Below the pieces are notes generated by a model. It searched no databases, had not been told where the DNA came from, and saw nothing but the letters and a program-made list of their open reading frames with translations. Position numbers and translations under genes: made by a program. A stretch of 64,000 nt of DNA from a virus. Of this stretch, positions 9,924 through 62,488 are shown one piece after another. The DNA lies in IMG/VR virus record IMGVR_UViG_3300033149_000928, positions 1 to 64,000 of that record; one strand, given 5' to 3'. The stretch's first letter is position 1; each line of letters opens with the position of its first letter.

Positions 9924-10532
9924 ATGAACATCACTGATACACATGGACATCTTCTCTGTGCTGTGGATACCGAGACTACTGGCCTCGACCCAAAGAAGCA
10001 TGATGTTATTCAATTAGCAATATTACCATTAGGTCCAGACATGAAACCTAATAAACATTACATGCCATTTAATATGCATATAAGACCTGCGCATCCTGAG
10101 AATGTTGACCGCAAGGCTATGAGTGTTAATAAGATTGATTTGAATTGGATTATGCAACATGGTATCGACTGCTATCAAGCTGCCGATCTATTGGATGAAT
10201 GGTTTGAGAAATTGAAACTACCCATTAACAAGAGACTTATGGTAATTGGTCAGAATTATTGTTTCGATAAAGCTTTTCTACAAGAATGGCTTGGCCCTCT
10301 AAGTTATGACCATCTCTTCCATTATCATTATCGTGATACTATGGTTACAGCATTCTACCTAAATGATAGGGCGGCGCTCTTTGGAGAGACACCGCCCTTT
10401 AACTCAGTAAGTTTAGGTAGACTTGCAAATAAACTTAAAGTCGAGAATCTTAAAGCACATGATGCTTTGGAAGATTGCAAAATGAGTGCTGAATGTTACC
10501 GCCTCATGTTGCAGATTTATCCTGGTCTGTAG
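9924..10532 (+). CDS. DEDDh 3'-5' exonuclease (DnaQ-like)
   Basis: ExoI VDTETTGL, ExoII QNYCFDKAFL, ExoIII AHDALED. Confidence 0.9.
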   Translation: MNITDTHGHLLCAVDTETTGLDPKKHDVIQLAILPLGPDMKPNKHYMPFNMHIRPAHPENVDRKAMSVNKIDLNWIMQHGIDCYQAADLLDEWFEKLKLPINKRLMVIGQNYCFDKAFLQEWLGPLSYDHLFHYHYRDTMVTAFYLNDRAALFGETPPFNSVSLGRLANKLKVENLKAHDALEDCKMSAECYRLMLQIYPGL

Positions 10533-11822: not shown

Positions 11823-12803
11823 TTAAATAAACTCTTTATGTTTCAATGGGCAAATTAAATTATTTAGTGTGCGATTATAATCATCATAATAACAACGTGA
11901 ACATTTCCTTCCATCAAAAGAATTAGTATGCTTGAACTCTCTCCAAGTACCCATTCTAAAGTCCTCTGGGAGTTTCCTCAACTCTGTACTTGCATACTGG
12001 ACACCACAACATGGATAGATATATCCATCAGCCCCGATAGTTGGTTTCAATAAAGATATGAGGCATTGTTCATGGCCAAGAGTAAAGATATTTCGATATT
12101 GGAAAATAGCCTTATGAGTAATAATTTTACAAATTTTCTTTATGGTATCCATCGCCTCTATATTATATTCCTCAGTAGCATTAAAGATATCTTGTACAAA
12201 ACGAATATGTGTAATATTCGGTATTATAGCTGCAACCTCACATACTTGTCTTGCTATATCCATATCACTCTTGGTTGTAACTGTAAAACTGATCCCAATA
12301 TCTACATTAGGTAACATACCACATATCTCTTCAATCATTCTAATATCATAAATATTCTCAGTATCGAAAACAGATATCCTTAACCAAGTTAAAGCATTAT
12401 TAATGATACTCATATCGAGTTTATTATTTATAAAATTAAGACCATTAGTTACCAAACCACAACGTATATTTAATCTTGCTGCGGCTATTAATATACTAAG
12501 AAAATCCTTATGTACTGTAGGTTCTCCACCACCAGATATTGTAACGGCTTCGGTACCAAGTGACGAGAACTCTTCAAAGATAGCTCTTATCTCTGTTATC
12601 GGTAACTCCAATGTACGGTCCACAGCAGAACAAGAACACCAAGTACAATTTCGATTGCACTTATTTGTTGGGATAAGCTGAAGGTGTATGGGTTTAATAC
12701 TTCCATCTACGATAGCTCCTTTATGTTGTAAGAGTTTCCAAGGCATAGTACCAGCAGCCGTATAACTATTAATCATTAGGTGTCCTTCCCCAATCTTTAC
12801 CAA
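11823..12803 (-). CDS. Radical SAM enzyme with SPASM/twitch-like C-terminus
   Basis: CNRNCTWC (CxxxCxxC), ISGGGEPT, VTNG, GADGYIYPCC, CSRCYY. Confidence 0.9.
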   Translation of the reverse strand: MVKIGEGHLMINSYTAAGTMPWKLLQHKGAIVDGSIKPIHLQLIPTNKCNRNCTWCSCSAVDRTLELPITEIRAIFEEFSSLGTEAVTISGGGEPTVHKDFLSILIAAARLNIRCGLVTNGLNFINNKLDMSIINNALTWLRISVFDTENIYDIRMIEEICGMLPNVDIGISFTVTTKSDMDIARQVCEVAAIIPNITHIRFVQDIFNATEEYNIEAMDTIKKICKIITHKAIFQYRNIFTLGHEQCLISLLKPTIGADGYIYPCCGVQYASTELRKLPEDFRMGTWREFKHTNSFDGRKCSRCYYDDYNRTLNNLICPLKHKEFI

Positions 12804-14879: not shown

Positions 14880-17800
14880 CTAAGCAATATAAATTTTACT
14901 CACAGTACTTAGTGTGCTCCCATTATATCCCCCTATAATATATAATTCATTATTATATATTATAGCAGCATGATCCTTAACAGAGAAATTAGCAGGAGTA
15001 AATAGTGTATATGTATCTAAAACAGTATCATAAATATAAGTAGTATCAACTTGTGCCCCATTTAATGTTGCCGCTCCACCGTGGAAAATTATCTTATCCC
15101 CAAGTACTGAGGCAGTATGATTATACCTATTAACTGGTGGCGCGGCTCCAGAACCCCAAGAGTCACCAGCTATATTATATATATCCATAGTACCACCAAA
15201 CCAAATATATATAACGCCATTAACTACTGCTGCTGCCGCTTGTTGTTGTTTATTTGCGGAAGGTGTTCTTACATTTAACCATACATCCCCACTAATATTA
15301 TAATCATAAATCTCTTTTCCTTCTTCTGAGAAAGCAACCTCACCCCATGTGAATATATGTCCAGCGTTGGCAACTGCAATCGGACCTTCTCTATATCCAT
15401 TCATCACTGTACCCGGACCATTTACAGCATTAGTAAAGGTATTAGTTACTGTATTATATATCCAAAGATCAGTTTGACGATTGGAAGACCCATCATTTCC
15501 GCCTATCAAATATACTCTAGTGCCCCATAAAGCAGAAGCAGCCTCTATTCTTGCCTCTCCACCTGCTGCTCCATTTGTCCATGTATCGGAAGCAATATCA
15601 TAAATTCTTGTTGTATTAGTTATACCTGATGTTCTGCCCCAAATAGCATATATCTTTCCTCCTGCTGTTTGTGCTATGTGTTGTTTCCGTGCTTCTGGTA
15701 ATGAAGCAAGAGTAATCCATATTTCTGTTACAATTTCATCGTTGAACTGAGCTTCCTTACCTACGATCTCTCCAGTGATTCGGATACCATTTGTCGCGCC
15801 GGGGATATCTAATCGTACACCATTGAAGGACCATTCTCCATTCACAATACTAGCATAAACGAAACCCCCATAGTTACTAGCATTAGGACCAATAGCCAAC
15901 CAATCTAATCTACCACCGCCCGTGTAATCATAAGCTTCTAAACGTAGAGTCTCATTATAAGACGTAGCTACTGATCCATCGGATTGTAAAATAGCACCAG
16001 CCAACTCGAACTCAATATCATCGAGTATTGGCCCTTCTTTCGATAATTGTAGATAATCAGCATTAGCCTGGACTGACTCTGTGAAGATAATATCAGATAC
16101 AACTCCAATAGAAGAAAGTCCAGAAATCGTGAACTGACTACTTTGTTTATCATCATATTTCTCAAGGACATCATCAGCAGTAAAAGTACCGAAGTCGTCA
16201 CCTTGACCGCCATTGATATATGTACCTGAGAAAGTATATGAACCTCCTGCATCTAAAGTAACTTGAGTTATTTCCGTACCTGTAGAATCATATAATTTAT
16301 CAAGAGGATCAGCACTATTAAGTAGTATATCAATGACCTCACCAAATAACCCACCGGATAAAGTATAATCAGGTATTGTTGCTACACGTGTTACTATCGC
16401 AGGTGTTGAGGCCCATGAGAGACTATCTACTTTCGGAGCGATGATATCGAACTCCTTGGTATTATCTCCAGTATACCCACTAGCAGCTACGCTAATAATA
16501 CCTGTCTTCGATCCACTACCCCCAGTAATTTGATTTGTAGTTCCTGTCCATGTACCATTTACTATACTAATATTTGAAGTATTAAGACTCTCAGCCCCAG
16601 GAGGAGATACTACTAAACCAAGGGTAGCTGAAACATTCTTTGAAATTTTATTATTTTGATAGTCCCATGTCTCTACAGTTAAAGTAAAGTTTACACCGCG
16701 TTGTACTTCATTCGGCTCCACAGTAAATTTTAAATAGAAAGTAGGATCACTACCAGTAGTTGTACCACTGGAACTCGACGCTGGATCAGAATTAGGATCA
16801 GAGTCCGTCTGTCCTTGTGTTGGGACTTCATATTCTACTTCCTCAAGACCCTCACCTACATCCTCTGGCATCGGGTTTGAGGGATTAACAGGATTACCAG
16901 GATCACCAGTAAAATAATTAGAATCTTCATCAGGATTATTACCTCCATCTACATCTCCAGCTTTTGATGCTAATTCTGATTCAAGGTGGATGACATTATC
17001 TACAGCATTGTGATTTACTAAATCAAGAATACCGATTAGGGTGTTTGAGCTTAACACATTAAGATCATAATCTACTGCATCGAAATTCTCTAAAGCAAGT
17101 GTTACAAGTGGAGTATCAAGTGCAATCTTCCTCCAGGAGTTCGAGTATCTATACCCCCAAAAACCTGCACTGAGTATTATAAGAGATTCAATATTATATA
17201 TCGTAAACTCCCTATTGAACTCCCTCAATCCATAATTCGCAATATTATTTGAGTAAATATAATCACGTTCGACATTCTCTTCTTCGGAGTAGTTCTTCTT
17301 CCATGTAGCATTGATACGAGTATAGATATCCTCAGTAGAAGTAAATCCCAACCGTATTGTTTTAAGAAGGACTTCACTCTCTATTAATGTCTCATTGATA
17401 CTTGGTTCGATGGAGAGATATTTAATATATACAGTACCATTCTTTATGAATAAAGCACAACGAGATTGCCATGCTATATCTTCACATATTGCAAGGGCAT
17501 CTGGTTGATCGAAAACCGTAAAGTTCGCAGGGTATTTCTCTAGGGCTTCACTTACAGAAGCAAAAGAAGTAGCATCAATAGAGAAAGATGTATATGTCTC
17601 TAGTAAATATTGAATTATATTAGCAGCATTTGGCCCTATGGTGGACCTCGAAGAAACATATACATCACCCTCCCATTCTTCACCGATATAATCTTCGAGC
17701 GCAATCGGGAACTCAAGCGTAGTAGGACTCTCAGTACCCAAGGTATCAGATAGATTCTTAATATAATAACTCTTTGGTATCGGAGCAAATATCCGTTCAC

Positions 17801-19022
17801 CATCAAAATTACGATAGCCATATACATCTAGTATCTCAATGCTCGGTATCAAATTAACCACATAGAGATTTGTATAGGATACCTCTTGATTAACAGGTGT
17901 TCCAGCACGTATATTCCAATGATCCGCTAATATAACAGTTAAGGAACGGACCTCATTATGCTCATGGGATGTTAGTGTCTCATAATACCAAGCAATATTT
18001 TCAATAACAAAAGTCTCAGCCCATGATCCACGGGGTATTGGAGCAGTCTCAGCAATAACACTACTACTATCAATCTGGACTTCCAGGATAGTATCAGCCG
18101 GTCGCCACGGTTTAAGGAACCGACATTTCCTTCCATCTTGTGCTATGCATTTATTAACCATCCACCCATAAACACCATGATTAATAATACAATATAAGCC
18201 CTTGAGATTAGAGGTCTCACCGTACTCTAACCAAAGTACGCTTGCATCGAACCGATCACTATCTGCTACTGGTCTATCTCCCAATCCAAGGGTAGTATGA
18301 TAAGCATCATTCTGTGTGGAGATAGTGAAGGTTTCACCACTAAACGTACCAGTATATTTAATCTGCCCTATAAGGAGATTAATACTTGTACTCTGTGGGA
18401 ACTCTTCACCGCCTTCAACCTCGAATGTCGCGAAGTTTTGATTGATTCCATAAAGAAGTTTACCTATAGGACGGTTCTTAACCCGGAGAGCAGGGGTATT
18501 TAAAGTAGTACCAAAAGAAAAAGGCCATGTTACTCCTTCTGCTTCGGACCAAAGATCAGAGAAATCCCCGGCTTCCGCAGCATAACCAATATTCTCTACT
18601 TCGACATATGATTCGATATCGAAGTCAAGTGTCCTCTCTCCTTCAAGCCAGAGGGTATCCCCTGCGATACGACCTTTCAATATGACGGTTGCATCAGATT
18701 GGGCGTTACCTTCATAATGATGGTAAACGGTACAAGACTTCCCTTCGATGATCTCCGTGTCTACCTTGGTTTTCAAAGAGCCGTCACTATCATCGAGAGT
18801 AACACTGACACTGGAAACCTCTCCAGTGACATCTTGTTTACCTTGGCTGGATATGGCTGAGAATTCCGTGATACTACCTTGCACAGTCCATGCGCCAAGA
18901 GTAAAGGTTTTATATCCGTAATACTCCGTGCCACCAGTCCAATCAATTTGGATAATTATAATTGGCTCAGTAGCCAAAAGAGTATCAGCTTTAGCTTGTG
19001 CTGCTACTGTTAGTGTACGCAC
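14880..19022 (-). CDS. Large tail-tip/central fibre protein with Ig-like domains and C-terminal Kelch propeller
   Basis: Position in tail module; Kelch signatures KIYAIWG, RVYLIGG, KIIFHGG, ELYIIGGYNG, IYDIASDTW. Confidence 0.7.
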   Translation of the reverse strand: MRTLTVAAQAKADTLLATEPIIIIQIDWTGGTEYYGYKTFTLGAWTVQGSITEFSAISSQGKQDVTGEVSSVSVTLDDSDGSLKTKVDTEIIEGKSCTVYHHYEGNAQSDATVILKGRIAGDTLWLEGERTLDFDIESYVEVENIGYAAEAGDFSDLWSEAEGVTWPFSFGTTLNTPALRVKNRPIGKLLYGINQNFATFEVEGGEEFPQSTSINLLIGQIKYTGTFSGETFTISTQNDAYHTTLGLGDRPVADSDRFDASVLWLEYGETSNLKGLYCIINHGVYGWMVNKCIAQDGRKCRFLKPWRPADTILEVQIDSSSVIAETAPIPRGSWAETFVIENIAWYYETLTSHEHNEVRSLTVILADHWNIRAGTPVNQEVSYTNLYVVNLIPSIEILDVYGYRNFDGERIFAPIPKSYYIKNLSDTLGTESPTTLEFPIALEDYIGEEWEGDVYVSSRSTIGPNAANIIQYLLETYTSFSIDATSFASVSEALEKYPANFTVFDQPDALAICEDIAWQSRCALFIKNGTVYIKYLSIEPSINETLIESEVLLKTIRLGFTSTEDIYTRINATWKKNYSEEENVERDYIYSNNIANYGLREFNREFTIYNIESLIILSAGFWGYRYSNSWRKIALDTPLVTLALENFDAVDYDLNVLSSNTLIGILDLVNHNAVDNVIHLESELASKAGDVDGGNNPDEDSNYFTGDPGNPVNPSNPMPEDVGEGLEEVEYEVPTQGQTDSDPNSDPASSSSGTTTGSDPTFYLKFTVEPNEVQRGVNFTLTVETWDYQNNKISKNVSATLGLVVSPPGAESLNTSNISIVNGTWTGTTNQITGGSGSKTGIISVAASGYTGDNTKEFDIIAPKVDSLSWASTPAIVTRVATIPDYTLSGGLFGEVIDILLNSADPLDKLYDSTGTEITQVTLDAGGSYTFSGTYINGGQGDDFGTFTADDVLEKYDDKQSSQFTISGLSSIGVVSDIIFTESVQANADYLQLSKEGPILDDIEFELAGAILQSDGSVATSYNETLRLEAYDYTGGGRLDWLAIGPNASNYGGFVYASIVNGEWSFNGVRLDIPGATNGIRITGEIVGKEAQFNDEIVTEIWITLASLPEARKQHIAQTAGGKIYAIWGRTSGITNTTRIYDIASDTWTNGAAGGEARIEAASALWGTRVYLIGGNDGSSNRQTDLWIYNTVTNTFTNAVNGPGTVMNGYREGPIAVANAGHIFTWGEVAFSEEGKEIYDYNISGDVWLNVRTPSANKQQQAAAAVVNGVIYIWFGGTMDIYNIAGDSWGSGAAPPVNRYNHTASVLGDKIIFHGGAATLNGAQVDTTYIYDTVLDTYTLFTPANFSVKDHAAIIYNNELYIIGGYNGSTLSTVSKIYIA

Positions 19023-19897: not shown

Positions 19898-21310
19898 TTA
19901 AAGTTCCGCATTAAAAGTAGCATGAACAGCGCATAAATTATCAGCTGTAGCATTATCTGAATTTGAGAAAATTGTAGTTCCCATTTCATTTGTATTACTA
20001 GCGGCTGCATTTCTATCTGTAGAGCCACCTACATCTCTATATTTTCCAGATGCATTTAATGTAGAAGGGGAATAAGGGGTTATAGTCGGAGCTATACGCA
20101 TAGGAGGATTAAATCTAATACTTTGAGCATAAGAAGCAACTCCTCCAGCAGTTGATCCAGCGTGTTCATATAAAGCTCCACTATTTGTTACCGTTCCAGC
20201 AGATACTCCAAGAGCATATGTTTGTCTCCAATATCTTCGACATTGTAATAATTCAGTACCGAAATCCATATGTTCAAAATTAGTTACTACAGCACCAGCC
20301 TCTAATTGAATCCCTGTGACCTGAAACCTCTCCCCAACTTGAGCATCAGTATCATCTAACCAAATTATAATAGCAACATTCTCTGCATTTGAAGTATCAA
20401 TACTGATATTTTCAATTGTTTGACGTACCCATCCACTTGTCAAGGCAATATTTTCTGGTGTATTTTCTGCAGTCCAATTTGTTGCCCAAGTTGGATTTGA
20501 ACCAGAACTATTCCATGCACTTACAACATCAGAAGTAACAGAATCTGCTGTACTGTCCCATGCAAGTACAGCTGCTCTTACATTTGCTAAATTACCATCC
20601 CCTTTAATATAAAAAGATAAACTCGCTACTCCTCCAATAATTTCCTGTGCATTTTTCGCTTCAATAATTTTACATAATCCCATTTTTTTACTAGCAGTTT
20701 CAATATCAAATTTCCAACTATATCTAAATCCAGTTGGAGCATCAGTATCTTGAGTAATATCTGAGATATCATTCCCATCACTCAGAAGAATTGTTCTATC
20801 TAACAAGTAAGTATCATCATTATTTGCAGGAGTTGTTGTAGAATCAAAAATTGTTCCTTGTTGCGCTACCTGCATAGCACCGTTAATAAGAATATTCCCA
20901 CCTACACCCTTAGTATTAAGAGTATTCAAGGCATCAGATACAAAAGCACCAGATACATTTGAATCATTATCTACTTGACTCGCATCATAATCAGAGGCCA
21001 CAGCTACTACTGCTCCTGTCCTAGTGAAAACACTAGATACTGCGGTGGTAGCTATCGTTTCCCAACTATCCCCATCATCAACATATAATGTACTATTATC
21101 TGTTGCCCAATAAAATCGGCCTGACTCCCCGGCAGAAGGCCGGGAAGCCAGTGTACCGACAAGACACCTTCCAGCGATAAGATTACCTGCCCCATCGCCA
21201 ACGAATAGCTCTTTGGTGTCCGTGGTAAATCCAAGCTCGCCAGCGGCAAGGGTAATGCCATCTAACTGAGCCTTTGTTCCACGGCGAACTTGAATATCCA
21301 CGGCCATCAT
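19898..21310 (-). CDS. Tail fibre with Mtd_N-like N-terminal domain
   Basis: IQVRRGT, LAAGELGFTTDTKELFVGDG; NILINGAMQVAQ, QLEAG, ELLQCRRYW fibre motifs. Confidence 0.75.
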   Translation of the reverse strand: MMAVDIQVRRGTKAQLDGITLAAGELGFTTDTKELFVGDGAGNLIAGRCLVGTLASRPSAGESGRFYWATDNSTLYVDDGDSWETIATTAVSSVFTRTGAVVAVASDYDASQVDNDSNVSGAFVSDALNTLNTKGVGGNILINGAMQVAQQGTIFDSTTTPANNDDTYLLDRTILLSDGNDISDITQDTDAPTGFRYSWKFDIETASKKMGLCKIIEAKNAQEIIGGVASLSFYIKGDGNLANVRAAVLAWDSTADSVTSDVVSAWNSSGSNPTWATNWTAENTPENIALTSGWVRQTIENISIDTSNAENVAIIIWLDDTDAQVGERFQVTGIQLEAGAVVTNFEHMDFGTELLQCRRYWRQTYALGVSAGTVTNSGALYEHAGSTAGGVASYAQSIRFNPPMRIAPTITPYSPSTLNASGKYRDVGGSTDRNAAASNTNEMGTTIFSNSDNATADNLCAVHATFNAEL

Positions 21311-21377: not shown

Positions 21378-22985
21378 TTAGAATGAACCACCATCAACCG
21401 CAGCAACGGAAAGCGTTCCAGCAGCATGAGTAAGAGAATCATTGTCAATGGTAAGACCAACACCATTAGCACCAACAGTAACTTGACATACAGTTGCACC
21501 AGTTGTATCATCAGGATCGACTGAGAGTGTACTTCCACCACCACCTGCAATACCATTGCCTTGTGTTGCCAACTGCAACTGTGCTGAGCCATCAGCCTCG
21601 ATACCGACACCATCAATCGCAGCCACATCTACCGCAACACCATTAGCTCCTACACTGACAGGAACCAAATCACCACCAGACTCTGAGTCAGGATCAACAG
21701 AAAGTGTTGAACCATTACCACCAGCAATACCATTACCTTGAACAGCTAGACGGAGATTAGCTGAACCATCAGCCTCGACACCAGTACCGGCAATCGCTCC
21801 AATATCAACACCGACACCATTGGCTGTGATATTAGCTGGCTGGATATCTGAACCCGTTTCCGAGTCGGCATCAACGCTAAGCGTGGAACCATTACCACCG
21901 GCAATACCATTACCCTGTGTTGCAAGGCGGAGATTAGCTGACCCATCAGCTTCAACACCAGTACCAGCAATCGCTGAAATATCAACACCAGCACCATTAG
22001 CAGTAAGATTTACAGGTTGGACATTTCCGCCAGTCTCAGAATCAGCATCAACACTCACGATATTCGTGGTGATGTCGATACCGTTACCAGCACTAAGGCC
22101 CCCACCTTGGTTAATAAGTACCCAAGCACCAGTAGGTACAGTACCATCGAAGGCATACTGATTATTATCGTAATAGCCCTCTTGAACCATTATAGCATTG
22201 CCTTCAACTGCATCTCCTGAGGCAACACCAGTTAATGATGTTCCATCGAAGTCAACTACCTTACTATTATCCGTATTATCCGTATATGGAGAGATAAGTG
22301 CCGTACCAGTATCGGGGGCTAAAGCGGCTCTTACACCATCAGCAACAAAACCACCAGCACCAGTGGTAATTTTGACCCATGCTGATCCACTATATTCCCA
22401 GATATCACCAATTGCTGCCGCTGCCATACCTGCCGCACCATCAGCAGTTGAAACCGTATAGGCGTCACCAGTATTAGTTAAGACTTCGATAACCGATGCC
22501 GCAGCGTTACCAACGAGATTCAGAACATCAATCGGCTCTTTCCAACTTGTACCGGCAACCGCAGCATTAATAGCGGTCTGAATCTTAGAGGCAGTCCAAA
22601 GTTCAGAGGTCGTAGTTCCGCCATCATCGACAGCTTTCCCTGAGTCCTGACCTTTACCGTTGGCATCAAGACTTACGAGGTTATCTTCAGTACCGCCGAT
22701 ATCCGAAGTGATCTCGTCCCACGTTGCACCGTTATCCACAAACAACTCGTCAGTATCAGTAGCATAGAATAACCTACCAGCGACTGCCGCTGAGGGGATA
22801 CTACCAATAGCAGCCATAATAACACGACCAACGAGTAGATTAGATGCACCATCACCTACCCATAGTTCTTTTTGGTCATCGGTAGTGAAACCAAGTTCAC
22901 CCGATGCTAATGTAATTCCATCGAGAGCAGCCTTTGTACCTTTTCGTACTATGATAGTAACACCATACCAATTGCGGATTCTCAT
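21378..22985 (-). CDS. Fibre protein with RxWYG leader, Mtd_N-like domain and three 59-aa repeats
   Basis: MRIRNWYG|VTIIVRKGTK...GELGFTTD; repeat VDADSETG...QGNGIAGGNGSTLS x3 plus a partial copy; ends DGGSF. Confidence 0.7.
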   Translation of the reverse strand: MRIRNWYGVTIIVRKGTKAALDGITLASGELGFTTDDQKELWVGDGASNLLVGRVIMAAIGSIPSAAVAGRLFYATDTDELFVDNGATWDEITSDIGGTEDNLVSLDANGKGQDSGKAVDDGGTTTSELWTASKIQTAINAAVAGTSWKEPIDVLNLVGNAAASVIEVLTNTGDAYTVSTADGAAGMAAAAIGDIWEYSGSAWVKITTGAGGFVADGVRAALAPDTGTALISPYTDNTDNSKVVDFDGTSLTGVASGDAVEGNAIMVQEGYYDNNQYAFDGTVPTGAWVLINQGGGLSAGNGIDITTNIVSVDADSETGGNVQPVNLTANGAGVDISAIAGTGVEADGSANLRLATQGNGIAGGNGSTLSVDADSETGSDIQPANITANGVGVDIGAIAGTGVEADGSANLRLAVQGNGIAGGNGSTLSVDPDSESGGDLVPVSVGANGVAVDVAAIDGVGIEADGSAQLQLATQGNGIAGGGGSTLSVDPDDTTGATVCQVTVGANGVGLTIDNDSLTHAAGTLSVAAVDGGSF

Positions 22986-28000: not shown

Positions 28001-31000
28001 TCAAAACCTAAGTGTCTTTCTACGGATTTGTCTCTGTAAGAGTTTCCCAACCTTAGTAACGTCATAAGCTTCATTGCCACTGGACTGCATATTGATATTC
28101 ACATCACCAACATTGGTTACAGAGCCGCCACCTTGGAATGGTTGGATACCGGCATTCATAGCTACGAGTTGCGTATGGAACTTCCTAGCTGATCTTGCGT
28201 TCATCACGAACTCACCAGGAGTAAGCATAGCGGGTACGGTGTCTGTACTTCCTGGGACATCTCCTCCTGCTGCTCTACCTAATGGACCGACTTTATCTCT
28301 AATTTGAGCTAATAAAGCTGGAATATCTACTGTTTGTGCTTTCTCAATCTTCTTTAAGTGGTCGTTCCTATCTCTATCCGCTTGTTCAGTGAGGCCAAAG
28401 GTTTTATCGAATGCTTTTCGAGATTCCTCTACTTGCTTTTTCGATGCCTCAGTTAATTTCTTTAGTTCACTAACTGCATTATTATCTCTAGTAATTCTAA
28501 ATAACCTCAATACCGCATCTTCAAAAGTACTAATTGCAGCGACACCTTCTTCCGATCTTTGGCCTCTAAAGAAAGGAGCTAGTTCTTGTTGTGATCTCTC
28601 GAAATCTTCAATAGTTTTTATTAATACTGCTGCACCCTTAGCTGTTGGGTCTTTTAAGAACGGAGCTAAATCAGCTCTGAATTTAGCAAAATCTGGTCCT
28701 AATTTTGCAAAAGTACTTATAAGATCAGTTCTAGCCGCAGGTTCTGATCCTCTTAATTTAAGTTCTGCTTCCTTTTGTACTTTTATTCTATTCTTAAGCC
28801 CTTCTTCCTGGAGTTTGATTGTCTTTCTTACAGTTTCTAGTTCTTGTTCCAAAAGTTTCTTTTTAAGGGTTTCCTCTATCTGTGCTTCTTTCTTAGCTAA
28901 TTGCTCTTGAGCAACTATGGCAGTTTTAGGGTCTTTTACACTGGCCTTTTCAATGGTCTCTCTTGCTTTATCAACATCTTTTAAGGCTTTTAATAAATTA
29001 ACTATTTGTTCATCAACATCATCTACCCCGATTAAATCTTTAACTTTGAGTTTACTTATTTCTCTTGACTGCTCTTGTATAAGTTTAAGATTCTTTTCCC
29101 GTCTTTCTGTTTCTTCTTTTGCCTCCTTTGTGGCTTGTTTTGCTGCTTCCGCTAATTCCTTTTCAAATTCAATTCTCTGTTTTATAAGTGCATTTTGTGC
29201 TTTTGAAATTTCAAGTTGTTCAATCTCAATAGGTTGACGTTCTTTGATCTCTTGAGTAATATTTGCTGTTACTGTTAATAATTTTCTAATACGTTCGTTA
29301 TTTTCTCTTTCAAAACGTTCTTGATCTCGTTGAGCTTTAAGTACTGCCTTATCTTTGCTTTGTATACTCTTAATCTCACCATTTACACTAGTAATACTTA
29401 TTCGTGCACCGGCTCTTATTCTAGCATCAATCTTATTTTCAAAAGTCAATCTCTTATCAGCCGCTTTAAGACGTAAATTTTCTAAATCTGTAGCGGCTTT
29501 CTTTCCCCGTTCCCGTAATTTATTAACTTCCTTCTCATTAGATTCATTCTTCTCCGCTGTATCTGATTGGAGTTTAGCTGCTTCCTCAAGTAATTTCTTT
29601 GTTATATCAAAAGCTGCCCTTGCATTACGTTGAGATTGTTGGTCAGTACCCGTTATTGAGATAGCAGCAACAAATTGTTTTTGAGCTTCAGCTATAAGTA
29701 ATCGTTGTTTTGCTTGAACATCTACTGCACTATCTAATTGTTCTCTAAGTATATTACTAGCTAATTCTCTTTTGAGGTCAGCAATATTCTTAGTAGTTTG
29801 TTCAATAGTCTTTTCTGAGTCCTTAAGAATATCATTAAGGTCTTTAATGCCTGCTTGTATTGACTTAATAACATCTTGGTATGCGAGTTTAAGTCCATTT
29901 GCTAATTCTTTATCTAGTCCGACTTGAGTATCTAATTGTTTACTTAATACACTTTGGACTTGAGCTATAGCCGCTTTAGCTAAGCGAAACTCTACTTCAT
30001 ATCCACTCTCGATAATTTTGAGTCGTGCTGTAGTTTGATCTTTAAGTTTCTTAACAGATTCATTATAGAAATCATCTGCTTCTTTAATAGCTTCATCATA
30101 GGAATTAGTGACTGAATCAAAGGCTAATTTGAGTCCTATACCTGCCGCTGTCAGTCCCGCAACAAGAGCGCCGAAGGGAGTGACAATGATAGCTAAATTT
30201 AGACTCACAAGTGCAGCAGCCGCTAAACCAATAGCTGGGGCTAAGAAAACAGTAATAACACTAGCAAAGAGCTTAACACTATCAGATAAAGATAAAACAT
30301 TATCATTAACAAATTTAATTGTATCAATAAGGTCTCTACCAATTTCCTCAGTAAAGAAGTTCTTAATCTTATTTACTTCGATACGGATTTCTCTACCCGT
30401 ATTAGTTAAGGTTTCTTTAAGAGCCACTTCATAAGATGCTTGAGCCTCTTGGAGTTCTTTCCAGTTATTTTCAAAAGTCTTGAGACCTCTACCGGCAAAG
30501 ACCATTGCGCCACTGATAGCACGAATACGTCCAAAGATTTTACCTAATTCAGAAGAACTACCCTTAGTACGTTCTTCAATTTTCGCAAGTACACCACCAA
30601 ATCCGAAAGCAGCAATTGCAGCTTCACCAGATACAACACCCCATTCTCTAAAGAGTTTAGTCATTTCCGCAGTTGGGCGGATTAATTTTAACAAAATGTT
30701 GCGAATTGCTGTTTGGGCCTTTTCGAATGGCACACCACGTATTGTAACTGTAGTAATAGCAGCGGCAAGGTCTGTAAATGAAAGCCCTAAATTAGCTGCC
30801 GGAACAGCACTTTGTCCTATAGTATTTGCCATTTCATCAAGACGCACACGACCAAGTTCAATCGTCTTAAATGTTTGTGCTGCTATATTTGCAGTATCAT
30901 CAAGGGTAAGATTAAAAGCATTCTGTACAGCAGAAAGAAACTGTACTGAAGCAGCGGCATCTGAAACACCAACAAGTGCTAATTCATTAGCAGATTTTAA

Positions 31001-43385: not shown

Positions 43386-43482
43386 GGGTATAGGGTATAG
43401 GGTATAGGGTATAGGGTATAGGGTATAGGGTATAGGGTATAGGGTATAGGGTATTGGTATAGGGTATAGGGTATAGGGTATT
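43386..43482 (+). repeat. Tandem heptamer (GGGTATA)n, about 13-14 copies
   Basis: Read directly; two GGGTATT variants. Confidence 0.95.
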
Positions 43483-45001: not shown

Positions 45002-48000
45002 GATATCGGTTCTCCATTTCGGGTTTGTGGTCCTTGTGCCGTCCATACGGCGCAAGGATGTAGCGTTCTCTATGCTATAGGCTTTTCCTCCGTCTGCGAG
45101 TCTTTGATTTGATAAATCAAAATTTGCTCTTGCTTGCGGGTCAAGGTGGTCAACATATCGGGCATTCTCCCAACATAGGACAAGGCTACAAGCCGTATCA
45201 CTATTTTTGATTTGATTTTCTTGATTTGATTTTTGGTTTTGGTTTTGGTTTTGCTTTTGGTTTTGGTTCATGGTTTTATCCTTTCAAGACACTATAATAG
45301 AAGCATATCCCATGCCAGACTCTAGGAATTTTGTGCATTATTGTTACTCGTTGATATGTATAGACTTACCGGATCGACTATGCCTATTTCTTGTAAGTCC
45401 CTTAAAAGTCCCGATACTACAAGATATCTTGTAAGTCCTTATGTGACAACGACTTATGAGTGCAACATTTCATTACCTTTGTGGGATTTCCCCACAGTCT
45501 CGATTTTTACTTCTAACCTGTTGATATATAAGGCTTTACCGAGTCTTAAAATCCGACATTGATTCTTGATTTCCTACACTTTTTGTGTAACGATATGTTA
45601 AGTCTATATATGATAAAAGGTTATGGGGTATGGGTCGCTCAGAATACTATCATATGCTATCATGCCTGATATGGGCTTATATAATGTATTAAAGCAAGTA
45701 TTGTTCCAGTTTTGATAATTTCCGATATTAGTTGACCTTATTTTTGATTTTGGTTTATGATTTGATAAACCAAAACCAAGTGTCGGATTTTCCTACGGCA
45801 CTTTCTGCCGCATCATTTTGACACGGCAATTTCTGCCGCTGTAACAAAAGCTTACTTTTGTAACATATTTTTGCGTTTTGTAACAAAAGTTTACTTTTCG
45901 ACCGATTTTCGTATATCCTAGTTTATGCCGGACCCGGTTCGTGATAGATATTCCGGGAAAATTATTGATTTAATAAATCATTTTCACTTTTACAGGGCGG
46001 GTTTCATGTTTTCGGACATCGAACTCTGATAGCGGATAATTCATTTGGACACTTTAATTTTGGTACATTATTCTCTGAGTATTGGTCATGGATGTGGAAT
46101 ATGGATATTTGGGTGAATTGTAGGTTATTTGGGTGTGGATTATAGGGTGTTTAAAGATGATTTTCACGCATCGGATCTCGGCCAGACAAAACAACAAGAC
46201 TATGGTTTTCGGTTTCGGTTCTCGATTGATGGTTTACACGTTTTCGTGTAAGAGACAGAATCGAGGTTATGGGTTTCTCAGACCCCATATCCCTTTACGT
46301 AGCAACAACTTACTACTTTCCTATATCCCGTAAGTTTTATGTAAGTCTTGATTTCCTACACATAATTAATTTCACTCAGATTATTACATAACCTGTAAAG
46401 TCCTAATAGAGCTACAAAGCCCTCCACATGTAAAAGCCTTTACACGAAAAGCTGATATTTTCACTCCTTATCTTTTGTTTAGCTTATCGACGAAATAAAA
46501 GTACTTATGAGAGTATATGAGAGTATATGAGAAAGTGTAGGATTCCACCACACTTCTCGTAAGTCGTTGATATGTATATATATATATGTACCTAAAAACG
46601 TGTATTTAATATAAGTCGTTTTCACAAATGCCTTTACCGAATCCCCATTACGTTTTCCTCAGTTTAGACGCAAGCCTTTTGAGGTCAAGGACTTACTACT
46701 TCTACTTACTGACTGTTTTCTGAGTCACCCATATGGAACAATTATATAATATCTTTTATATGGGGTTAACTGAAAACCATCCAGTTAGTAAGCCCCCGAT
46801 CCACGGCTCTCGACCCCTCTAAGCCTACCCACCAGCAAAGTGCTGAGCATGGGTATACTCCATCCTAAGCCGCTTTGTCAACTTTCCGGGGGCATTGGAC
46901 CTTGAGCCAAGGCAAGCCCTTAGAATCGACGACTAACTTAGTCGTAAAGCAAAACGTAAAGAAATGAAAAGAGTAAAAGCACCTGACAGAAAGAGTAAAG
47001 CAATGGTAACGATACATTACACACTGAGAAAGGTAAAGGGAAAGGTAAGGTAATGTTACATAGTAACGTATCGTTACACTAAGGGACCAAATAAAATAGC
47101 CCAGGAACATATGTCCCTGGACCACTAGCCAATACCATATTAATTTTAGCCACAATCACAACTCTTGATTTACTAAATCACGTAACCACTGTCACATTCA
47201 TATAGGATAATACACACCCATCAATAACATCTCGGTCTGAACCACTAATCTGTGGTGTAGTAGATAATATACGATGGACCTCGGCTAAGGCAACATCAGA
47301 GAGGGCTGCTGGAACACGTACATCAGTACCACTAACCTTAACTACATTAATATTAACAGTAAGAGCAACATTCACGGCTACGCCTCCTTAACTAGTAACC
47401 TTACCCAACGTCCCAGACACACGGTCCACGACTATTTGAGCACAAGCCTTACAAACAGGTAGTCCAGTCCCATCTAACAAGTAATGCACCGCATGACCAA
47501 TACTCTCATAGCAAGGTAAAGAAGTGACATCCTTCCCACATACAGACAAATTACCTTCTGACCAGATATCACGTATACACAAAGAGGGCTGTTTCATCAA
47601 TCATCCTCCGGCTGCGCCACCCTAACGACCCAATGTCCCACCCAACGTATTCTCCACTTGCGTCAATGCCTTATCGAGATCACTTACAGGCATGGCGTCA
47701 ACAATGGCATCAAGGTCCAGACTAAGCTGACCACCAGAATACACACGCTTGAAACGGAACTGCTGACCCTCAGTACAAGTAGTTAAACCCTCTTTAATAG
47801 TCTGCCTAGCAAACGCCTCAATAGTTTTATTCATGGGCTACGCCCTCCGGCTGAACTGTTAAATGTATCCTATGCTTTACCTCACATTTCGAGCATAAAT
47901 GTATTGTCCCACATTCACAATCATGTCCATCCCAATAACAAGGATACTTACTACCACACTCTGGACATGTGAACCAAGAATTATAATGCCAGAAAGTAGG

Positions 48001-55834: not shown

Positions 55835-57671
55835 CCTTCTCTTCCTTCCATTGATTTTGTAAATCAGAAGCTAATTCTAATAGATCATTAGCATATATAG
55901 ATTGGGCCATTCTACCTTCACTAAGAGTCATAAGTGCTTGAATAATTCTTTGTCGCTTAATCTTGGTATCATGATGCTTTTTACCTCTTCGTTTAAGTTT
56001 ATTCTTTCTATTAGTAGTAGGATACTTTTCACAAAGTTCTTGATACCATTTTGGATTCGTATTATTAATAACCCTGACACTATGATTACTGTGCTTAGAC
56101 TCTGGTGCTTTACCTAAACCTACTTCCAGTTTATTCTTTTTCAATTGAGTTAACATTATAGATAGAGTTAAACGCAAGTGTTTTGGAGCAATAATCCGTG
56201 ACCATTTCTGATCCTTATTCATTATGGTCCCTTACTACTCTCCCTTAATGCGATGAACAACACGTACTTTTACTACTACAGTCGTACCATTAGGAACACT
56301 ATCCCCATCCTCATGGACAATAGGTATATCCATCCATACCATTCCTCTTTTATTTGTGAACTTATCTTTCTTCTTAATTAACCAACGCATTATTCTCCTC
56401 CAAGATTCATATCGTCATCACTCTCGGTTTTCCTCCATACAGTTAGGATATCATCCTTAACCTTATCTAAAGCACCAAGTAACCAATTCCCACTGTAGTT
56501 TCCTGTATCAAAGTCTACTGTGAATGGTGGACTATGTTTACTTTGATCTGTATTATTCGGATCAATAGCAACTATTGCAAAAGGTATCCTCCTGCGTCTT
56601 AACTCCATACAGATTTCATCTACCGTGGCTAGTCTTAAATCATTCATGGTCACTGATCCTCCGGCCAAATAAAACAATCAGCTTTACCAATAAGGACTGC
56701 CCATGCCTCACGTAGACATTGAAGATATGTCCTATAAGGTATAGGTCTAGCAGGTACCCATTTACCGTTGATTTCTGTCTGAGTTTCTGATGCACATTTC
56801 ATTAAGTCTTTCAGTATCCACATACCCTTACTCCTTATGGAAGAAGTGCCTATTCCCTTTATTGATAGAACGTAGAACTGGTGTCCTTACTTCCCTTGGC
56901 CTTGACTCTTTAACCACCACCCATGATTCCCTAGTCCTTATATTATTTTGTATCTTCTTTAATTGTTCTGCTGCCCATTCATTTGCTGCCCATTCATCTT
57001 GATAAGGTTTTATGTCCACACTATCATGTTCAACCTGCACTCCCCATTGACAGTTTTGACAATCTGTATCAGAACAGGTAGGGCTATATTCAGTATAGTT
57101 ACTCCAAGGTTTTGTACAAGTAAAATGTATCATTTACTATCCTTCGCAGCCTCGCCGTTTTGATTTACTAAATCATTATCTTTATCAAATTCTGCAAGCT
57201 TCTTATTCAATTGTTTAAGTTCCAGTTCCTGTTGCTTCTGAATTATCTGCATTTTAAGCGTGGGAGGATAAGTCCTAGATTTCCAATAAGAGAGCAAACA
57301 AATAACAAGGAAGATAGCTAAAGTATATCTAAACCAATTCTCTTTAATATTTTCAAACATCAATAGCCTCCTTATCAACTTCCACACTAAGAGTAAACTT
57401 CCTCACAGCATCTTCCTTATATTGAATACCCATAGCCCTAAGTAAATCACTAGGGTAGAGTCTCCAGGTTATATCCCCACTAGCGACTCCATCTTTCTTC
57501 ATTTCATCTTGGACTTCTCTTTCCATTAACCAAGGGTCTCTACCGCAGATTCTAATGTATTCTTCCTCAGTGACATCCCAACAGAAGCACTCATTATCTC
57601 CACTCCATGATCCAGTTATCGTTATCTCTTTCATCTTGGCTCCTTAAACATACACATTGATTTAGTAAATC

Positions 57672-58366
57672 ACTCTATAGTACAGTATAAAACTACACCT
57701 TACCTTCACACAACCTTACTATACACAACTATGCAATACCTTTACATAACAAGACAGCACGGTATAAGACCATACCCTTACTTTACTTTACCTCGCGGTA
57801 CTGTACTTTACTGCACCTTCACAACACGTTACTAGAGGCCACTACACAATACCCTCACCTTACCCTCACCTAACAAAACACAACATGACAAGACTATACC
57901 ATTACCAGACAGTACACTACCATGCGCTACGGTGCCTCACCTAACTTCACCTTTACCCAACACTATGGGACAGTACACTACCTTGACAATACCACACAGT
58001 ATTTTACGTAACACTACTACACCATCGCGATACTTCGCCAGACTATACCATAACCACACAGTACCATAACCGTACCGGACAAGATATGACCTTACCATAC
58101 CATTACCCTACGTAACCTAACTATACCTTTACTGCACAAAACGAACTAGACCCAACATCGCCATAACGGGACTACGCGTGACTACGCGTGACTACGCGTG
58201 ACTACACCATTACTCGACCCAACCGAACCCCACAGTACCATACCTTTACATCACCTAACCCAACCGCACCATTACAAGACTTCACACCAGATAACTATGC
58301 CTTACCATTACTCTACCCAACACCACCCCTCTACACCATTACTAAACCAAACGTGACCGTACCATC
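57672..58366 (-). ncRNA. Putative guide-RNA array of NNN-GT pentamers punctuated by NA(A/T/G)GGT hexamers
   Basis: Hand parse: 114 pentamers (one is a 4-mer) plus 21 hexamers = 695 nt, starting at the stop codon of the Cas7-like gene. The periodicity is seen directly; RNA status is inferred. Confidence 0.7.
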
Positions 58367-58997
58367 ACTTCTTCTCTTTCTCGCCACCCTTCTCTCCCAC
58401 AATCTCATAACTGATCCGACCCTTACCACTATTATGCCACTGTCCAAGGGCATTGCGCTTACCATAGTCAAGCCACTCAATGATGTTTGGCCTTAGTTTC
58501 TCGTCATAGGTTTTAATAGTGAATACCAATATATTACCAGCCGGAACGGTTTCGCTACGTGCTAGCGCAACACGCTCACCCTTTGGACCTTGTATCCTTA
58601 GTGGACGTATGCAGATACCCATAACAGGAGGATTACCATCAGGCCCGATAATCATAATCTTTCTCGGAGCGATGAAAATTAATCCATCAATGATCTTCTT
58701 GTAAGCAGTCATTCCTTTACTCTTCGTACCCTCTACCCTACGCAAAGCACTACAGGCATTCTTGAAGAACCCCTTAATCAGATAATCATAGATGAAAGGC
58801 TGACCGTTATCATCACGATGGAAAACTGTTGTCTGCTTCTTTACTTCGTCCTCGACTTCGGGTAAGGTTGACACTTCATCTGGATCAACACCCTCAGGAC
58901 GTTTTGAGGCGATGAACTCTTCATAGAGTTCTGGATTCGCACTGGCTGTCCCAAGCATCTCCTCAATCAAGGTCGCTTTGATCTGCATCTCAAACAT
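58365..58997 (-). CDS. Cas7/RAMP-like RNA-binding protein
   Basis: IKATLIEEMLG; GQPFIYDYLIKGFFKNA (cf. RAMP P.I.GS.IKG); SETVPAG..LVFTI; C-terminal Gly loop LGQWHNSGKGR; AAGGAG RBS. Confidence 0.75.
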   Translation of the reverse strand: MFEMQIKATLIEEMLGTASANPELYEEFIASKRPEGVDPDEVSTLPEVEDEVKKQTTVFHRDDNGQPFIYDYLIKGFFKNACSALRRVEGTKSKGMTAYKKIIDGLIFIAPRKIMIIGPDGNPPVMGICIRPLRIQGPKGERVALARSETVPAGNILVFTIKTYDEKLRPNIIEWLDYGKRNALGQWHNSGKGRISYEIVGEKGGEKEKK

Positions 58998-59050
58998 GGT
59001 TTCTCCTTCAAAAGAAACACAAACAAACGGCTACGCCACATATTGATTTA

Positions 59051-59957
59051 CTAAATCAAAATTTCAAACACATGAACTACTAAAGTGCCCTTCATCATTT
59101 GGAAAGTACCAATATACTTCTTTATATCTGTATGGTTAACTTCATGTCCAGTACCGTGTAATGCAAAGGTTCTTCTTTCATTTTCCTTTGAGTCATCAAC
59201 TAAAACCCAAAGACAAGGTATACCATTCTGCATTTGAACAGTAAGAATTTTAGAATTCTTTGGCATTAGGATATCTAAAGTGTCATTTGTTTCTAGTGGA
59301 TATTTCCATATTGTTTTCATCAGTATCGTCCCTCCCGCGAGTGAGAATGACTATATACAAATTCCTCAAGTTTTCTTACTCTTTCCTCCATTGTTAAAGC
59401 ATCAATAGCCTCAAAATATTCATTATGTTTTTCTTTATTGGTCTCTGCCTTACAATTAAAACACATATCACTTCGTGGTCGGACTGAATGATGTGTCTCC
59501 TCACACCCTATACATGTCCAGTGTGTTATATATGCCATCAATATCTCCTAACCAATTGAGTAACCAATGTAATGTGGCCACGTGAAAAACAGAACAGCAT
59601 AATGAGCTATTCTATGTTTCTCTTTGACTGTATCACACGTAGATTGATTCATACCACAAGCAATTAACCATCCAATGATCCATATGAAGATCATTAGTAG
59701 TTGTAGATCACTTAGCATTATGGTTCCTTTCACTTCAAATATACAAACTCCTTAACCTTCCCTTGCCATCTGTATTCAAGAATACCCACACCCTCCATAG
59801 CGTTGAGAGAGTCAAACAGAACACAGACCTCAAGTTTCTCCTCTCCGATCTTCACTAATTCCGCATATAACTCCGTGACAAGACCTACCATCTTCATACC
59901 ACCGGAATGCTTATTCAGTATCTCCTTTATTAATTTCTGGACTTGTTTTGATATCAT
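59051..59957 (-). other. Four small accessory genes (59051-59320, 59320-59541, 59548-59733, 59730-59957)
   Basis: Abutting ORFs; the first has a common phage motif MKTIWKY...LW.LVD...GTG. Confidence 0.6.
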
Positions 59958-60941: not shown

Positions 60942-62488
60942 TATAGCTCTCCTATAGACCGATTGATCTTTTCCAAAGACGTTTCAATATTATGCAAACT
61001 AGTAATTAATTCCACCATAAGGATTTGATTTACTAAATCAACAGGTTCAATATCATCAGGTATTCCATCAAGGTCTACCTCTGTTTTATACATCTTTTTT
61101 AGTCTGTCCAGACTCTTCATCCTTTTCCTCCATAAGTAATTCAAGTAACTCCATAATAGGGAACGTATAACTCCTTTCCTCCATCATCTTCACTCGATGC
61201 TCACGTATTGCTTCACTGATCCCAGGATACGTAGCCAGTAGCTCGCTCTCGGCTTCCGCCATATGACCACAAGCTAAGTACCAGTGACTAGGATAACCCA
61301 GGCGCGATTCGTCCATCAACACACTGGCCTGTGCTAAATGTTTCAGGCCACAGTTCAAGCAACTTTCCCGCATCGTGATACTCCCCAACTTTAGCTTTGA
61401 TATGACTCCCATCCTCCAAAGTAACCATCATATAGGCTTCCTCCCCATGTGGAGTAATCCCAAGATCATGGTCACATTCTTCACATCTCACATGATGCGC
61501 GATACGTGTAAACAAGACCGTATGGTGTGGACTCAAGAATGTATGGTGTAGGAATACTGGTTTCACTATATACTCTCCACCACAGTCACATGCCATTATT
61601 TGCTCCTTTAGCCCTAATTATATATTCCCAAGCTCATTACGGATTTGTTCTTTAGCCTCTTTAACTGCTTCTCCAAAGATATTAGACATCATTGCTTTAG
61701 CCATACTTGGGGCTAATTCCTCAAGTTTCCTATTCAGGTAGTCAGAAGTGAATTCCTCTATACCTTTATTAGAACCATCCCACGTTGTATTTGTTTTGAG
61801 GTTCGAGTTATTTAGAACTTTCTCAATCTCACTTTTAAGATACTCTCGAATCGCTTGCCATACCTCTGCACGGAAAGGTGTAACATGAATTTTTAAAGTC
61901 TCACGATACTCTTTAGGGTTATGATAGTTACTACTGCTATAAGAATGTATCTTTGACTCCCATTCCCATTCTTTTGTGTGCTCAAAGAATGCCTTAACCT
62001 CTTTATTAATCATCTCTTCCCATTGCTCTTGAGGAATAAGCATCCCAAACGTAGATTGTACTGTTTCTGCGATACGAGCTTTTAGTTGTTCAGGATTGAA
62101 TTGAACCACACTCTTATCTTCAGCATCAGACATTATTTCTCCTTAAATTGATTTAGTAAATCAATCAACCACTATTAATTGCCCCACCATCAGCCCCAAG
62201 GATATTAGGTTTCTCGAACTCCTTCTGTAACTTCTCCTTCTCAATATCCATATACTTCTGCGCTTTGAGATACGCATTCTCTACATCAGTAGCGTTTGGA
62301 ATATATACTGTCCTCCTTGTCTGTGAACCATCGGGAAATGTGATATCCAAGAAAGTAAAGTAATTCCTCATATCTTCATTGTTAATATTCACATGTTCCT
62401 CAATAATGGCATTCATTTTGAGATACCGATTAATACGGTATGTCGGTATAGCTTTCATTTGGTGGTGTTTATCTATGGGTTTATCCAT
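60941..62488 (-). other. Five hypothetical genes
   Basis: Co-oriented ORFs with RBSs (e.g. 61618-62133, 62165-62488). Confidence 0.55.

Follow-up and report, generated by a model that had tools for sequence, protein, structure and literature searches.

The first 64,000 nucleotides of the IMG/VR record IMGVR_UViG_3300033149_000928, hereafter the window, contain a small stand-alone RAMP gene, the vipr-like gene, next to a long array of 5-nt units. The record is a complete virus of 84,413 bp with direct terminal repeats and a G+C content of 40%, and nearly all of its genes lie on the minus strand. The source is an uncultured tailed phage, which encodes a P22-type coat protein, a gpA-type terminase, a tape-measure protein and Mtd_N tail-fibre proteins. 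Gene and array together fill 1.4 kb, with one gene and ~20 candidate guides, and we are highly confident that they form a system of the VIPR (Viral Interference Programmable Repeat) family. The features of the locus are the following (N, any base; Y, pyrimidine).

58365..58997, minus strand: vipr-like gene, a 210-aa open reading frame (ORF) for a predicted Cas7/Csm3-type RAMP.
57672..58366, minus strand: candidate vrRNA array, 695 nt, ~135 NNNGY pentamers in ~20 blocks.
58170..58205, minus strand: perfect 10-nt tandem repeat × 3.6, inside one array block.
59044..59058, unstranded: palindrome copy 46 nt ahead of the vipr start codon, marking the upstream limit of gene plus array.
57658..57672, unstranded: next palindrome copy, which follows the last pentamer immediately; the next gene starts 23 nt downstream of it (57634).

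A preliminary description of the window had placed the ORF at 58365–58997 on the minus strand, and these coordinates were confirmed. It had also recognised no cas1/2/3/5/6/10 and no repeat-spacer array, in agreement with a PADLOC scan that found no Cas protein among 85 ORFs and with a repeat search that found no repeat-spacer (CRISPR) array family in the phage sequence. The array begins within the stop codon of the gene, and its last base is the first T of the downstream palindrome. Upstream of the unit lies a gene for a DUF7352 protein, and downstream a 93-aa ORF with no Pfam or PHROG match. A megablast search with 57300–59400 gave no match in a phage collection.

The periodicity of the array is pronounced. 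On the minus strand of 57672–58364, identity is 0.481 at lag 5 and 0.455 at lag 10, compared with 0.19–0.30 at lags 1–4 and 6–9, which is the autocorrelation peak anticipated from the earlier reading of a period-5 array on the gene strand. This strand is G+T-rich (G 238, T 234, A 151, C 70); 2000 mononucleotide shuffles of it gave a lag-5 identity of 0.289 ± 0.016 with a maximum of 0.344 (z = 11.8 for the array), and 2000 first-order Markov simulations gave a z of 10.2. Across the window, 693-nt stretches have a mean lag-5 identity of 0.265, the best outside the array reaches 0.328, and the array is the window maximum. The periodicity is thus real and unique in the window, because the lag-5 excess holds over shuffles, Markov sequences and all other stretches of the window. 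Runs of at least five NNNGY units follow the same distribution: 10 occur on the minus strand, 10/10 within the array, and 0 occur elsewhere on either strand of the 84.4-kb genome (mean in shuffled genomes, 1.9). The earlier description had considered that the stretch might instead encode a conserved repeat protein; its gene-strand ORFs reach at most 53 aa, and the array is non-coding.

Parsing by dynamic programming, with 5-nt units and single-base slips, resolves the array into 135 pentamers in 20 blocks of, in order, 5, 6, 7, 5, 7, 9, 12, 7, 3, 5, 8, 6, 10, 7, 2, 7, 8, 7, 7 and 7 units (range 2–12, mostly 5–8); a looser parse cuts the 12-unit block and yields 22 segments. Position 4 of the unit is G in 124/135 cases and position 5 is a pyrimidine in 132/135 (T in 121, C in 11), and position 3 is G in 57/135 units overall and in 37/115 of the non-first units. 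The first unit of a block is strict, reading A-N-G-G-Y in 20/20 blocks, with T (11), A (6) or G (3) at its second position and T (19) or C (1) at its fifth, and an extra base stands ahead of it (A in 10 blocks, G in 6, T in 3, C in 1). The register slips by +1 nt ~20 times, every ~26–61 nt, and it is these slips that divide the array into ~20 blocks. GT consequently falls on all five residues modulo 5 (33/30/29/23/20) and the autocorrelation peak shifts from lags 5 and 10 to lags 16, 21, 26, 31 and 36, so that the claim of a phase kept for 695 nt has to be given up. An Rfam scan of the locus at E ≤ 1 gave no match, and therefore no hammerhead or other known RNA at the locus; the array has no 3′ tail, ribozyme or conserved non-periodic spacer, and its blocks abut.

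The array had also been described as free of long repeats, which overlooked the perfect 10-nt × 3.6 tandem repeat at 58170–58205. Two pentamer units alternate in this block; under a period-3 pairing rule it would specify a 6-nt-periodic target, and it may be a product of replication slippage.

The vipr-like protein falls into no family in Pfam, PHROGs or PADLOC. A large protein collection holds 799 homologues at E ≤ 1e-3, and 0 of the 120 homologues listed carry a Pfam domain; tblastn against a phage collection returned only four unannotated gut phage records, at 46–47% identity. The best match in BFVD, an uncultured siphovirus protein (47% identical, E 1.1e-21), already bears the name ‘Cas system-associated RAMP superfamily protein’. 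An AlphaFold2 model built from a 29-sequence alignment (pLDDT 80.3, pTM 0.76) folds first into a strand (residues 2–10), helices (22–54), a further strand (67–70) and two helices (72–85 and 99–106), followed by strands 107–117, a hairpin (127–151), a strand (156–163), a helix (166–178), a glycine-rich loop and a last strand (195–203). The predicted layout is an RRM core with an N-terminal helical insertion, a β-hairpin thumb and a C-terminal glycine-rich loop (G185-Q186-W187-H188...G191-K192-G193-R194), with no second RRM domain. Within the family W187 is invariant, its neighbours are Q or C on one side (186) and H or R on the other (188), and E12, an acidic residue that follows strand 1, is nearly invariant.

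The structural neighbours of this model are CRISPR proteins. Foldseek against the Protein Data Bank (PDB) gave 101 matches at E ≤ 0.001, with type VII Cas7 (8z4j_J, E 2.5e-7) and Csm3 chains on top. In an exhaustive VIA-align search the best match was Csm3 9g9a_D (Z 12.6, root-mean-square deviation 3.2, 162 residues aligned), followed by Csm3 6ae2_B (Z 12.1), type VII Cas7 8yhd_A (Z 11.8) and the Cmr4-like Cmr-β 6s6b_I (Z 11.7); the top 28 rows are CRISPR RAMPs in 28/28 cases, and the Cas7/Csm3 matches cover residues 1–207. The family profile matches type VII Cas7 at the glycine-rich loop (E 0.009). No solved VIPR structure was among the PDB matches, from a library that may not yet include any. 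The protein is thus predicted to have a Cas7/Csm3-type RAMP fold, in keeping with the RAMP/Cas7 hallmarks noted in the preliminary description. In Cas7 filaments one subunit occupies each fixed step of guide RNA. The RRM core, thumb hairpin and glycine-rich loop are common to the vipr-like protein and to Cas7, Csm3, Cmr4 and type VII Cas7 (Z up to 12.6), whereas the window has no repeat-spacer array, cas operon, Cas5, Cas6 or large subunit, its context is a phage, and its step is 5 nt with two to three fixed bases rather than the 6 nt with one flipped base of class 1 CRISPR-Cas.

The association of gene and array recurs in relatives. A period-5 stretch was called where lag-5 identity was more than 0.15 above the average for lags 3, 4, 7 and 8; applied to the 64-kb window, this criterion marked the array and one marginal site only. 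A period-5 stretch is present in 81/82 IMG/VR loci that encode a relative (the exception is L041), where it mostly abuts the gene, upstream or downstream, and lies 200–650 nt away in a few. A second, independent set comprised 80 loci, the best 80 of 141 relatives in GTDB species-representative bacterial genomes, drawn from Clostridia, Coriobacteriia, Bacteroidota, Planctomycetota and others; here the stretch lies at most 400 nt from the gene in 76/80 loci and elsewhere in two, and is lacking in two. The adjacent arrays looked for in homologues on the strength of the preliminary description are therefore there in both sets, and with the sets pooled the architecture recurs in ~157/162 independent loci. 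Across the 82 IMG/VR loci (L001–L082) the fixed dinucleotide varies by sub-clade of the protein family, being GT, GC, or G followed mostly by A. Several of these loci carry arrays on both sides of the gene.

The block structure recurs as well. In the other loci (154 of them, with 1795 unique blocks of at least five units), 73% of first units open with A and 88% have G as their third base, a base that is G in 27% of inner units; the parse used for related loci fixes G at position 4 of the first and last units by construction. Median block length in these loci is 6 units (interquartile range 5–8). Block punctuation is a family trait.

The genes beside these loci were also compared. The largest neighbour ‘clusters’ were rejected as accessory genes, as they are antisense ORFs within the gene itself. 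In 12 viral loci (L038, 3593–3877, and 11 others) the vipr-like gene is followed, at a median distance of 5 nt, by the start of a 93-aa protein that by eye resembles winged-helix DNA binders. It is a candidate vap-like accessory of this sub-clade, and it is absent from the window.

Selection on the array was followed in 16 non-overlapping pairs of related arrays, 66–97% identical over the parts that BLAST could align. Mismatches amount to 131/1506 (0.087) at N1, 170/1505 (0.113) at N2 and 170/1512 (0.112) at N3, compared with 42/1515 (0.028) at G4 and 106/1516 (0.070) at Y5; the three variable bases vary as freely as one another. For the adjacent gene, compared in 15 of these pairs (L063 had no clustered ORF, so that its pair was left out), the difference is 0.029 at first, 0.013 at second and 0.125 (384/3071) at third codon positions. 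The constraint on the anchor G thus equals that on first codon positions. The three N positions evolve at close to the synonymous rate, and in some pairs, such as L032/L033 (array 0.15–0.25, gene 0.03), faster. Blocks that have been replaced cannot be aligned and go uncounted, and turnover is therefore underestimated. A fixed G with drifting N bases is the pattern to be expected if a protein holds the anchor and the guide bases are programmable or free.

RNA-guided DNA-silencing systems named VIPR were first described in 2026 preprints; two date from April and one from October, and a language-model survey treats them as well. They are reported to be built on Vipr, a small ancestral RAMP found mostly in phages and proviruses (10.64898/2026.04.26.720920). 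That text reports 667 systems, seven types and six vap families, with vap ‘typically’ in the operon, and states that transcription of competing elements is repressed (10.64898/2026.04.26.720920). In the type II system of Escherichia phage SUSP1, vrRNAs of 9–16 YNNGG repeats with a structured 3′ tail are described as recognising double-stranded DNA through the NN bases alone, with a one-base skip; the same text mentions ‘staggered arrays with overlapping vrRNAs’, which lack tails, as well as ribozyme-interspersed arrays, and accepts the alternative repeats NNNGG, YNNNG and NNNNG (10.64898/2026.04.26.720920). One Vipr protomer is reported to cover each repeat, with G1 read by H17 and D177, G2 by R138 and W178, and Y3 by E71, M72, R179, C173 and T175 of the next protomer, and K33 in the helical bundle touches the target backbone (10.64898/2026.04.26.720927). 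A further preprint text reports VIPR-like arrays in 21 clusters whose motifs are non-canonical, some of these motifs being degenerate at one trinucleotide position (10.64898/2026.10.21.760802), and another describes satellite-encoded stand-alone vrRNAs that act as redirectors (10.64898/2026.10.15.759431).

The preliminary description had mentioned the name VIPR; the preprints exist and do describe a phage Cas7-like gene with a short-motif RNA. The array had likewise been taken for a looser NN-NGY variant. It is NNNGY, which is YNNNG read from another start, and looser repeat consensuses of this kind are part of the published text (10.64898/2026.04.26.720920). Because that text accepts NNNGG, YNNNG and NNNNG, the GGY/NN consensus separates subtypes and does not define the family. 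With the YNNNG-type, tail-less staggered VIPR systems, as they are described in the text, the locus has in common a lone small phage RAMP gene, an adjoining long non-coding 5-nt array in which a G and a pyrimidine are fixed and the rest is variable, and abutting guides with no conserved tail and no cas genes. The block grammar found here (an extra base followed by A-N-G-G-Y, median 6 units) is absent from that text description.

For comparison with a characterized system, the SUSP1 Vipr was located in KT454805 as an ORF at 28474–29061 on the minus strand (195 aa) with pentamer arrays on both sides; we equate this ORF with the published protein because the D177-W178-R179 numbering agrees with the paper. 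A model of a 99%-identical relative (pLDDT 92.5) has the same order of elements as the window model, namely strand, two to three helices, strand, helix, helix, two strands, hairpin, strand, helix, glycine-rich loop and strand, and in both a helical insertion separates strand 1 from helix 1. Its best solved matches, 9g9a_D (Z 11.4), 6ae2_B (11.3), 6s6b_I (10.8) and 8yhd_A (10.0), are those of the window protein. The type II SUSP1 system (Vipr of 195 aa, vap1 and four ~100-nt vrRNAs) and the window locus thus agree in predicted domain order and in their nearest solved folds; both are phage-borne, both have gene-strand pentamers ending in G-T, and both proteins carry the glycine-rich loop motif G-x-W-(R/H) followed by G-R-(F/I), to which their sequence similarity is limited. 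The SUSP1 units are mostly NN-GGY, whereas in the window the first G is fixed only in the block-initial unit. By hhalign and a joint MAFFT alignment, SUSP1 D177, W178 and R179 correspond to Q186, W187 and H188; the joint alignment, which is of low identity, also sets SUSP1 H17 opposite T17 and does not fix the equivalent of the thumb residue R138. In this low-identity alignment both G1-contacting residues, H17 and D177, are therefore replaced (T17 and Q186) and the G2 and Y3 residues are kept or conservatively changed, which would fit the loss of the first G.

The core of the preliminary description, a stand-alone Cas7-like RAMP that holds a constant G-pyrimidine and displays the variable bases as a gapped guide, of the VIPR kind, holds as far as computation reaches. 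Several observations weigh against a VIPR assignment or against close kinship with its type II exemplar. In sequence, a search of the SUSP1 genome with the window-family profile gave no hit at E ≤ 10, and hhalign of the family against SUSP1 Vipr reaches a probability of 12% (E 0.0024), or 28% (E 0.00062) for family against family, over 25–30 columns of the glycine-rich loop only; the two models were compared by element order and common best matches, in place of a direct superposition. The array departs from the canonical GGY/NN consensus, the first G being present in 57/135 units, which speaks against type II membership. SUSP1 guides have 9–16 units and a ~40-nt pseudoknot tail, and window blocks have 5–8 units and no tail, so that under the NN rule they would pair 10–16 bases compared with 18–32. 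SUSP1 has vap1, whereas the window has no vap gene, and no neighbour gene is conserved across the 82 viral loci or shared by them with the window. The likeness to YNNNG and staggered systems is drawn from text descriptions (methods and the legends of figs S17–S18), at a level that assigns none of types I–VII and does not establish membership in the 667 systems. The array RNA also folds somewhat better than shuffles (z −3.7, from 20 shuffles only), which is unexpected for a guide that is purely protein-coated; G-U-rich periodicity may be the sole cause.

The searches for targets point the same way. A self-target search of the phage genome under seven pairing rules gave no excess over 10 shuffles. 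An exact gapped-word search with 1818 unique blocks against 973 kb (the related loci and this phage genome), under 14 rule variants with a reversed-guide control, likewise gave no target excess; an excess under two period-5 rules alone reflects array-to-array similarity and not targets. The gapped-pattern targets proposed in the preliminary description were thus not found in the phage's own genome or in the 973 kb of related DNA.

The fold, the array anatomy, the linkage of gene and array in ~160 loci, and a pattern of conservation in which G is fixed and N free are direct results of this analysis. The locus is a further example of VIPR; it does not define another kind of system, and the result has the standing of a well-supported annotation, not of a discovery. 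The implication that it represented an unreported kind falls away with the 2026 preprints, which already contain VIPR and its variant repeats. What characterizes this branch is that only G-Y is fixed (YNNNG), with no vap and with an array that is tail-less and punctuated. By analogy with the type II SUSP1 preprints, the products would be ribonucleoprotein filaments that recognise DNA rather than RNA, pair with a 1-nt skip and repress. In the most likely scheme gene and array would be co-transcribed as one unit between two intergenic palindrome copies, and one Vipr protomer would cover each 5-nt unit, its thumb and glycine-rich loop holding the constant G and pyrimidine. A short helical filament would assemble on each block of ~5–8 units; the strict A-N-G-G-Y unit opens a block, and one extra base breaks the register. 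The variable bases would then pair non-contiguously with the double-stranded DNA of a competitor, be it a phage, a satellite or a prophage, whose transcription would be blocked.

The pairing code of the branch might differ from GGY/NN with a 1-nt skip. Blocks with a median of 6 units would offer only ~12 bases under the published rule; the third base may therefore be read as well, giving ~18 bases per block. In this tentative proposal, to which we give a rather low probability, G-Y is the anchor, the third variable base is also read, and A-N-G-G-Y together with the register break is the start/stop signal that replaces the pseudoknot tail and processing ribozyme.

Gene and array might also form the same kind of ribonucleoprotein but act on RNA, in the manner of type III and type VII Cas7 filaments, binding or cleaving transcripts of a competitor or of the host. 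The nearest solved folds, Csm3, Cmr4 and type VII Cas7, are indeed RNA-targeting, the short blocks and the lack of a vap gene are unlike the DNA-binding type II exemplar, and the nearly invariant acidic E12 after strand 1 occupies a position that resembles that of the catalytic Asp loop of Csm3. The point about E12 does not come from an alignment with Csm3. Moreover, SUSP1-type Vipr binds double-stranded DNA according to the text of the preprints, yet has the same nearest solved folds, and fold neighbours therefore do not discriminate between an RNA and a DNA target. An RNA-targeting system is, on balance, improbable.

That the array consists not of guides but of a decoy or sponge RNA, or of a structural DNA element (for packaging, replication or curvature) that happens to stand beside a RAMP gene, appears very improbable. 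The lack of a target in the phage genome under seven rules or in 973 kb of related DNA would agree with it, as would the satellite-encoded redirectors, stand-alone vrRNAs reported in the preprint text (10.64898/2026.10.15.759431). It is opposed by the co-occurrence of gene and array in 81/82 and 76/80 loci from several bacterial phyla, by the strand specificity of the NNNGY motif, and by a constant G that is conserved like first codon positions while the N bases drift, the signature of a protein-held anchor. A chance, functionless compositional periodicity of a G+T-rich spacer is refuted by z values of 10–12 against shuffles, by the uniqueness of the feature in the genome and by the same architecture in ~157/162 independent loci, and we give it practically no credence.

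VIPR is a newly described, CRISPR-related form of DNA recognition by a non-contiguous RNA code, used by phages against competing mobile elements. As a probable member, the present locus is a complete and compact example, with one gene and ~20 guides in a complete phage genome, and its branch seems large, with 799 protein clusters at E ≤ 1e-3 and 141 relatives in GTDB species genomes. The repeat grammar of the branch differs from type II in its G-Y anchor, three free bases, punctuated short blocks, and lack of tail and vap. VIPR itself and its variant repeats have already been published; whatever novelty is left would lie in the block grammar of this branch and in the code that it may use. If three bases per unit are read, or if register breaks define guide ends, the known code would be extended, and the format would be a very compact one for multiplexed guides.

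The preliminary description had gene and array bracketed by two palindromes. Both copies are present at the sites given, but the term is misleading, as the motif is genome-wide. The palindrome TGATTTASTAAATCA (TGATTTA[C/G]TAAATCA) has 45 copies in the window at ≤2 mismatches compared with 0.28 expected, and 57 copies genome-wide at ≤1 mismatch, and it is therefore a general intergenic signal and not a bracket of gene plus array. Forms of 15–17 bp, some with a further A, occur in nearly every intergenic gap (for example 1511–1525, 47166–47180 and 62149–62163). The 47 copies with a callable Shine-Dalgarno sequence and start codon lie a median of 34 nt upstream of the start. With a centre of 1 nt the palindrome is unable to form a hairpin. 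A dimeric factor probably binds it, and its likely role is that of a phage-specific promoter, an operator or a boundary between transcription units. The copy at 59044–59058 is followed by a short hairpin and T-run (59039–59027). Between gene and array there are 0 copies; the two therefore form a single inter-palindrome unit, with which co-transcription would be consistent.

Elsewhere in the window, the upstream neighbour of the vipr-like gene (59051–59320, minus strand) is a DUF7352/phrog_3848 protein (E 8e-26 and 7.5e-23) of unassigned function that is not kept beside vipr in other loci. The stretch 45300–47170 is long and has no convincing ORF; it contains hairpins and a weak period-5 signal at ~46,900–47,100, with T/G-rich short repeats at 45207–45277, and it matches no Rfam family at gathering score. 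The second period-5 signal was rejected as vrRNA, having zero NNNGY runs of at least five units on either strand. A heptamer tandem (GGGTATA) × 13.9, with 95% match, fills part of an intergenic gap at 43386–43481.

Two adjacent proteins, encoded at 19898–21310 and 21378–22985 (both minus strand), have N-terminal Mtd_N (major tropism determinant) domains, and the second has an internal repeat of 177 nt × 2.4 (21583–22054). Next to this pair lies the gene for a 1380-aa Kelch-repeat protein (14880–19022, minus strand), and the Kelch and Mtd_N proteins are candidates for receptor binding. A radical-SAM protein (11823–12803, minus strand) partially matches prokaryotic viperin models (E 3e-13, ~100 residues), and a DEDDh exonuclease is encoded at 9924–10532 on the plus strand (E 4.6e-20). 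Rfam RF00023 identifies a full-length tmRNA gene at 1900–2284 on the minus strand (128.5 bits, E 6.8e-50); ARAGORN called neither tRNA nor tmRNA genes anywhere in the window.

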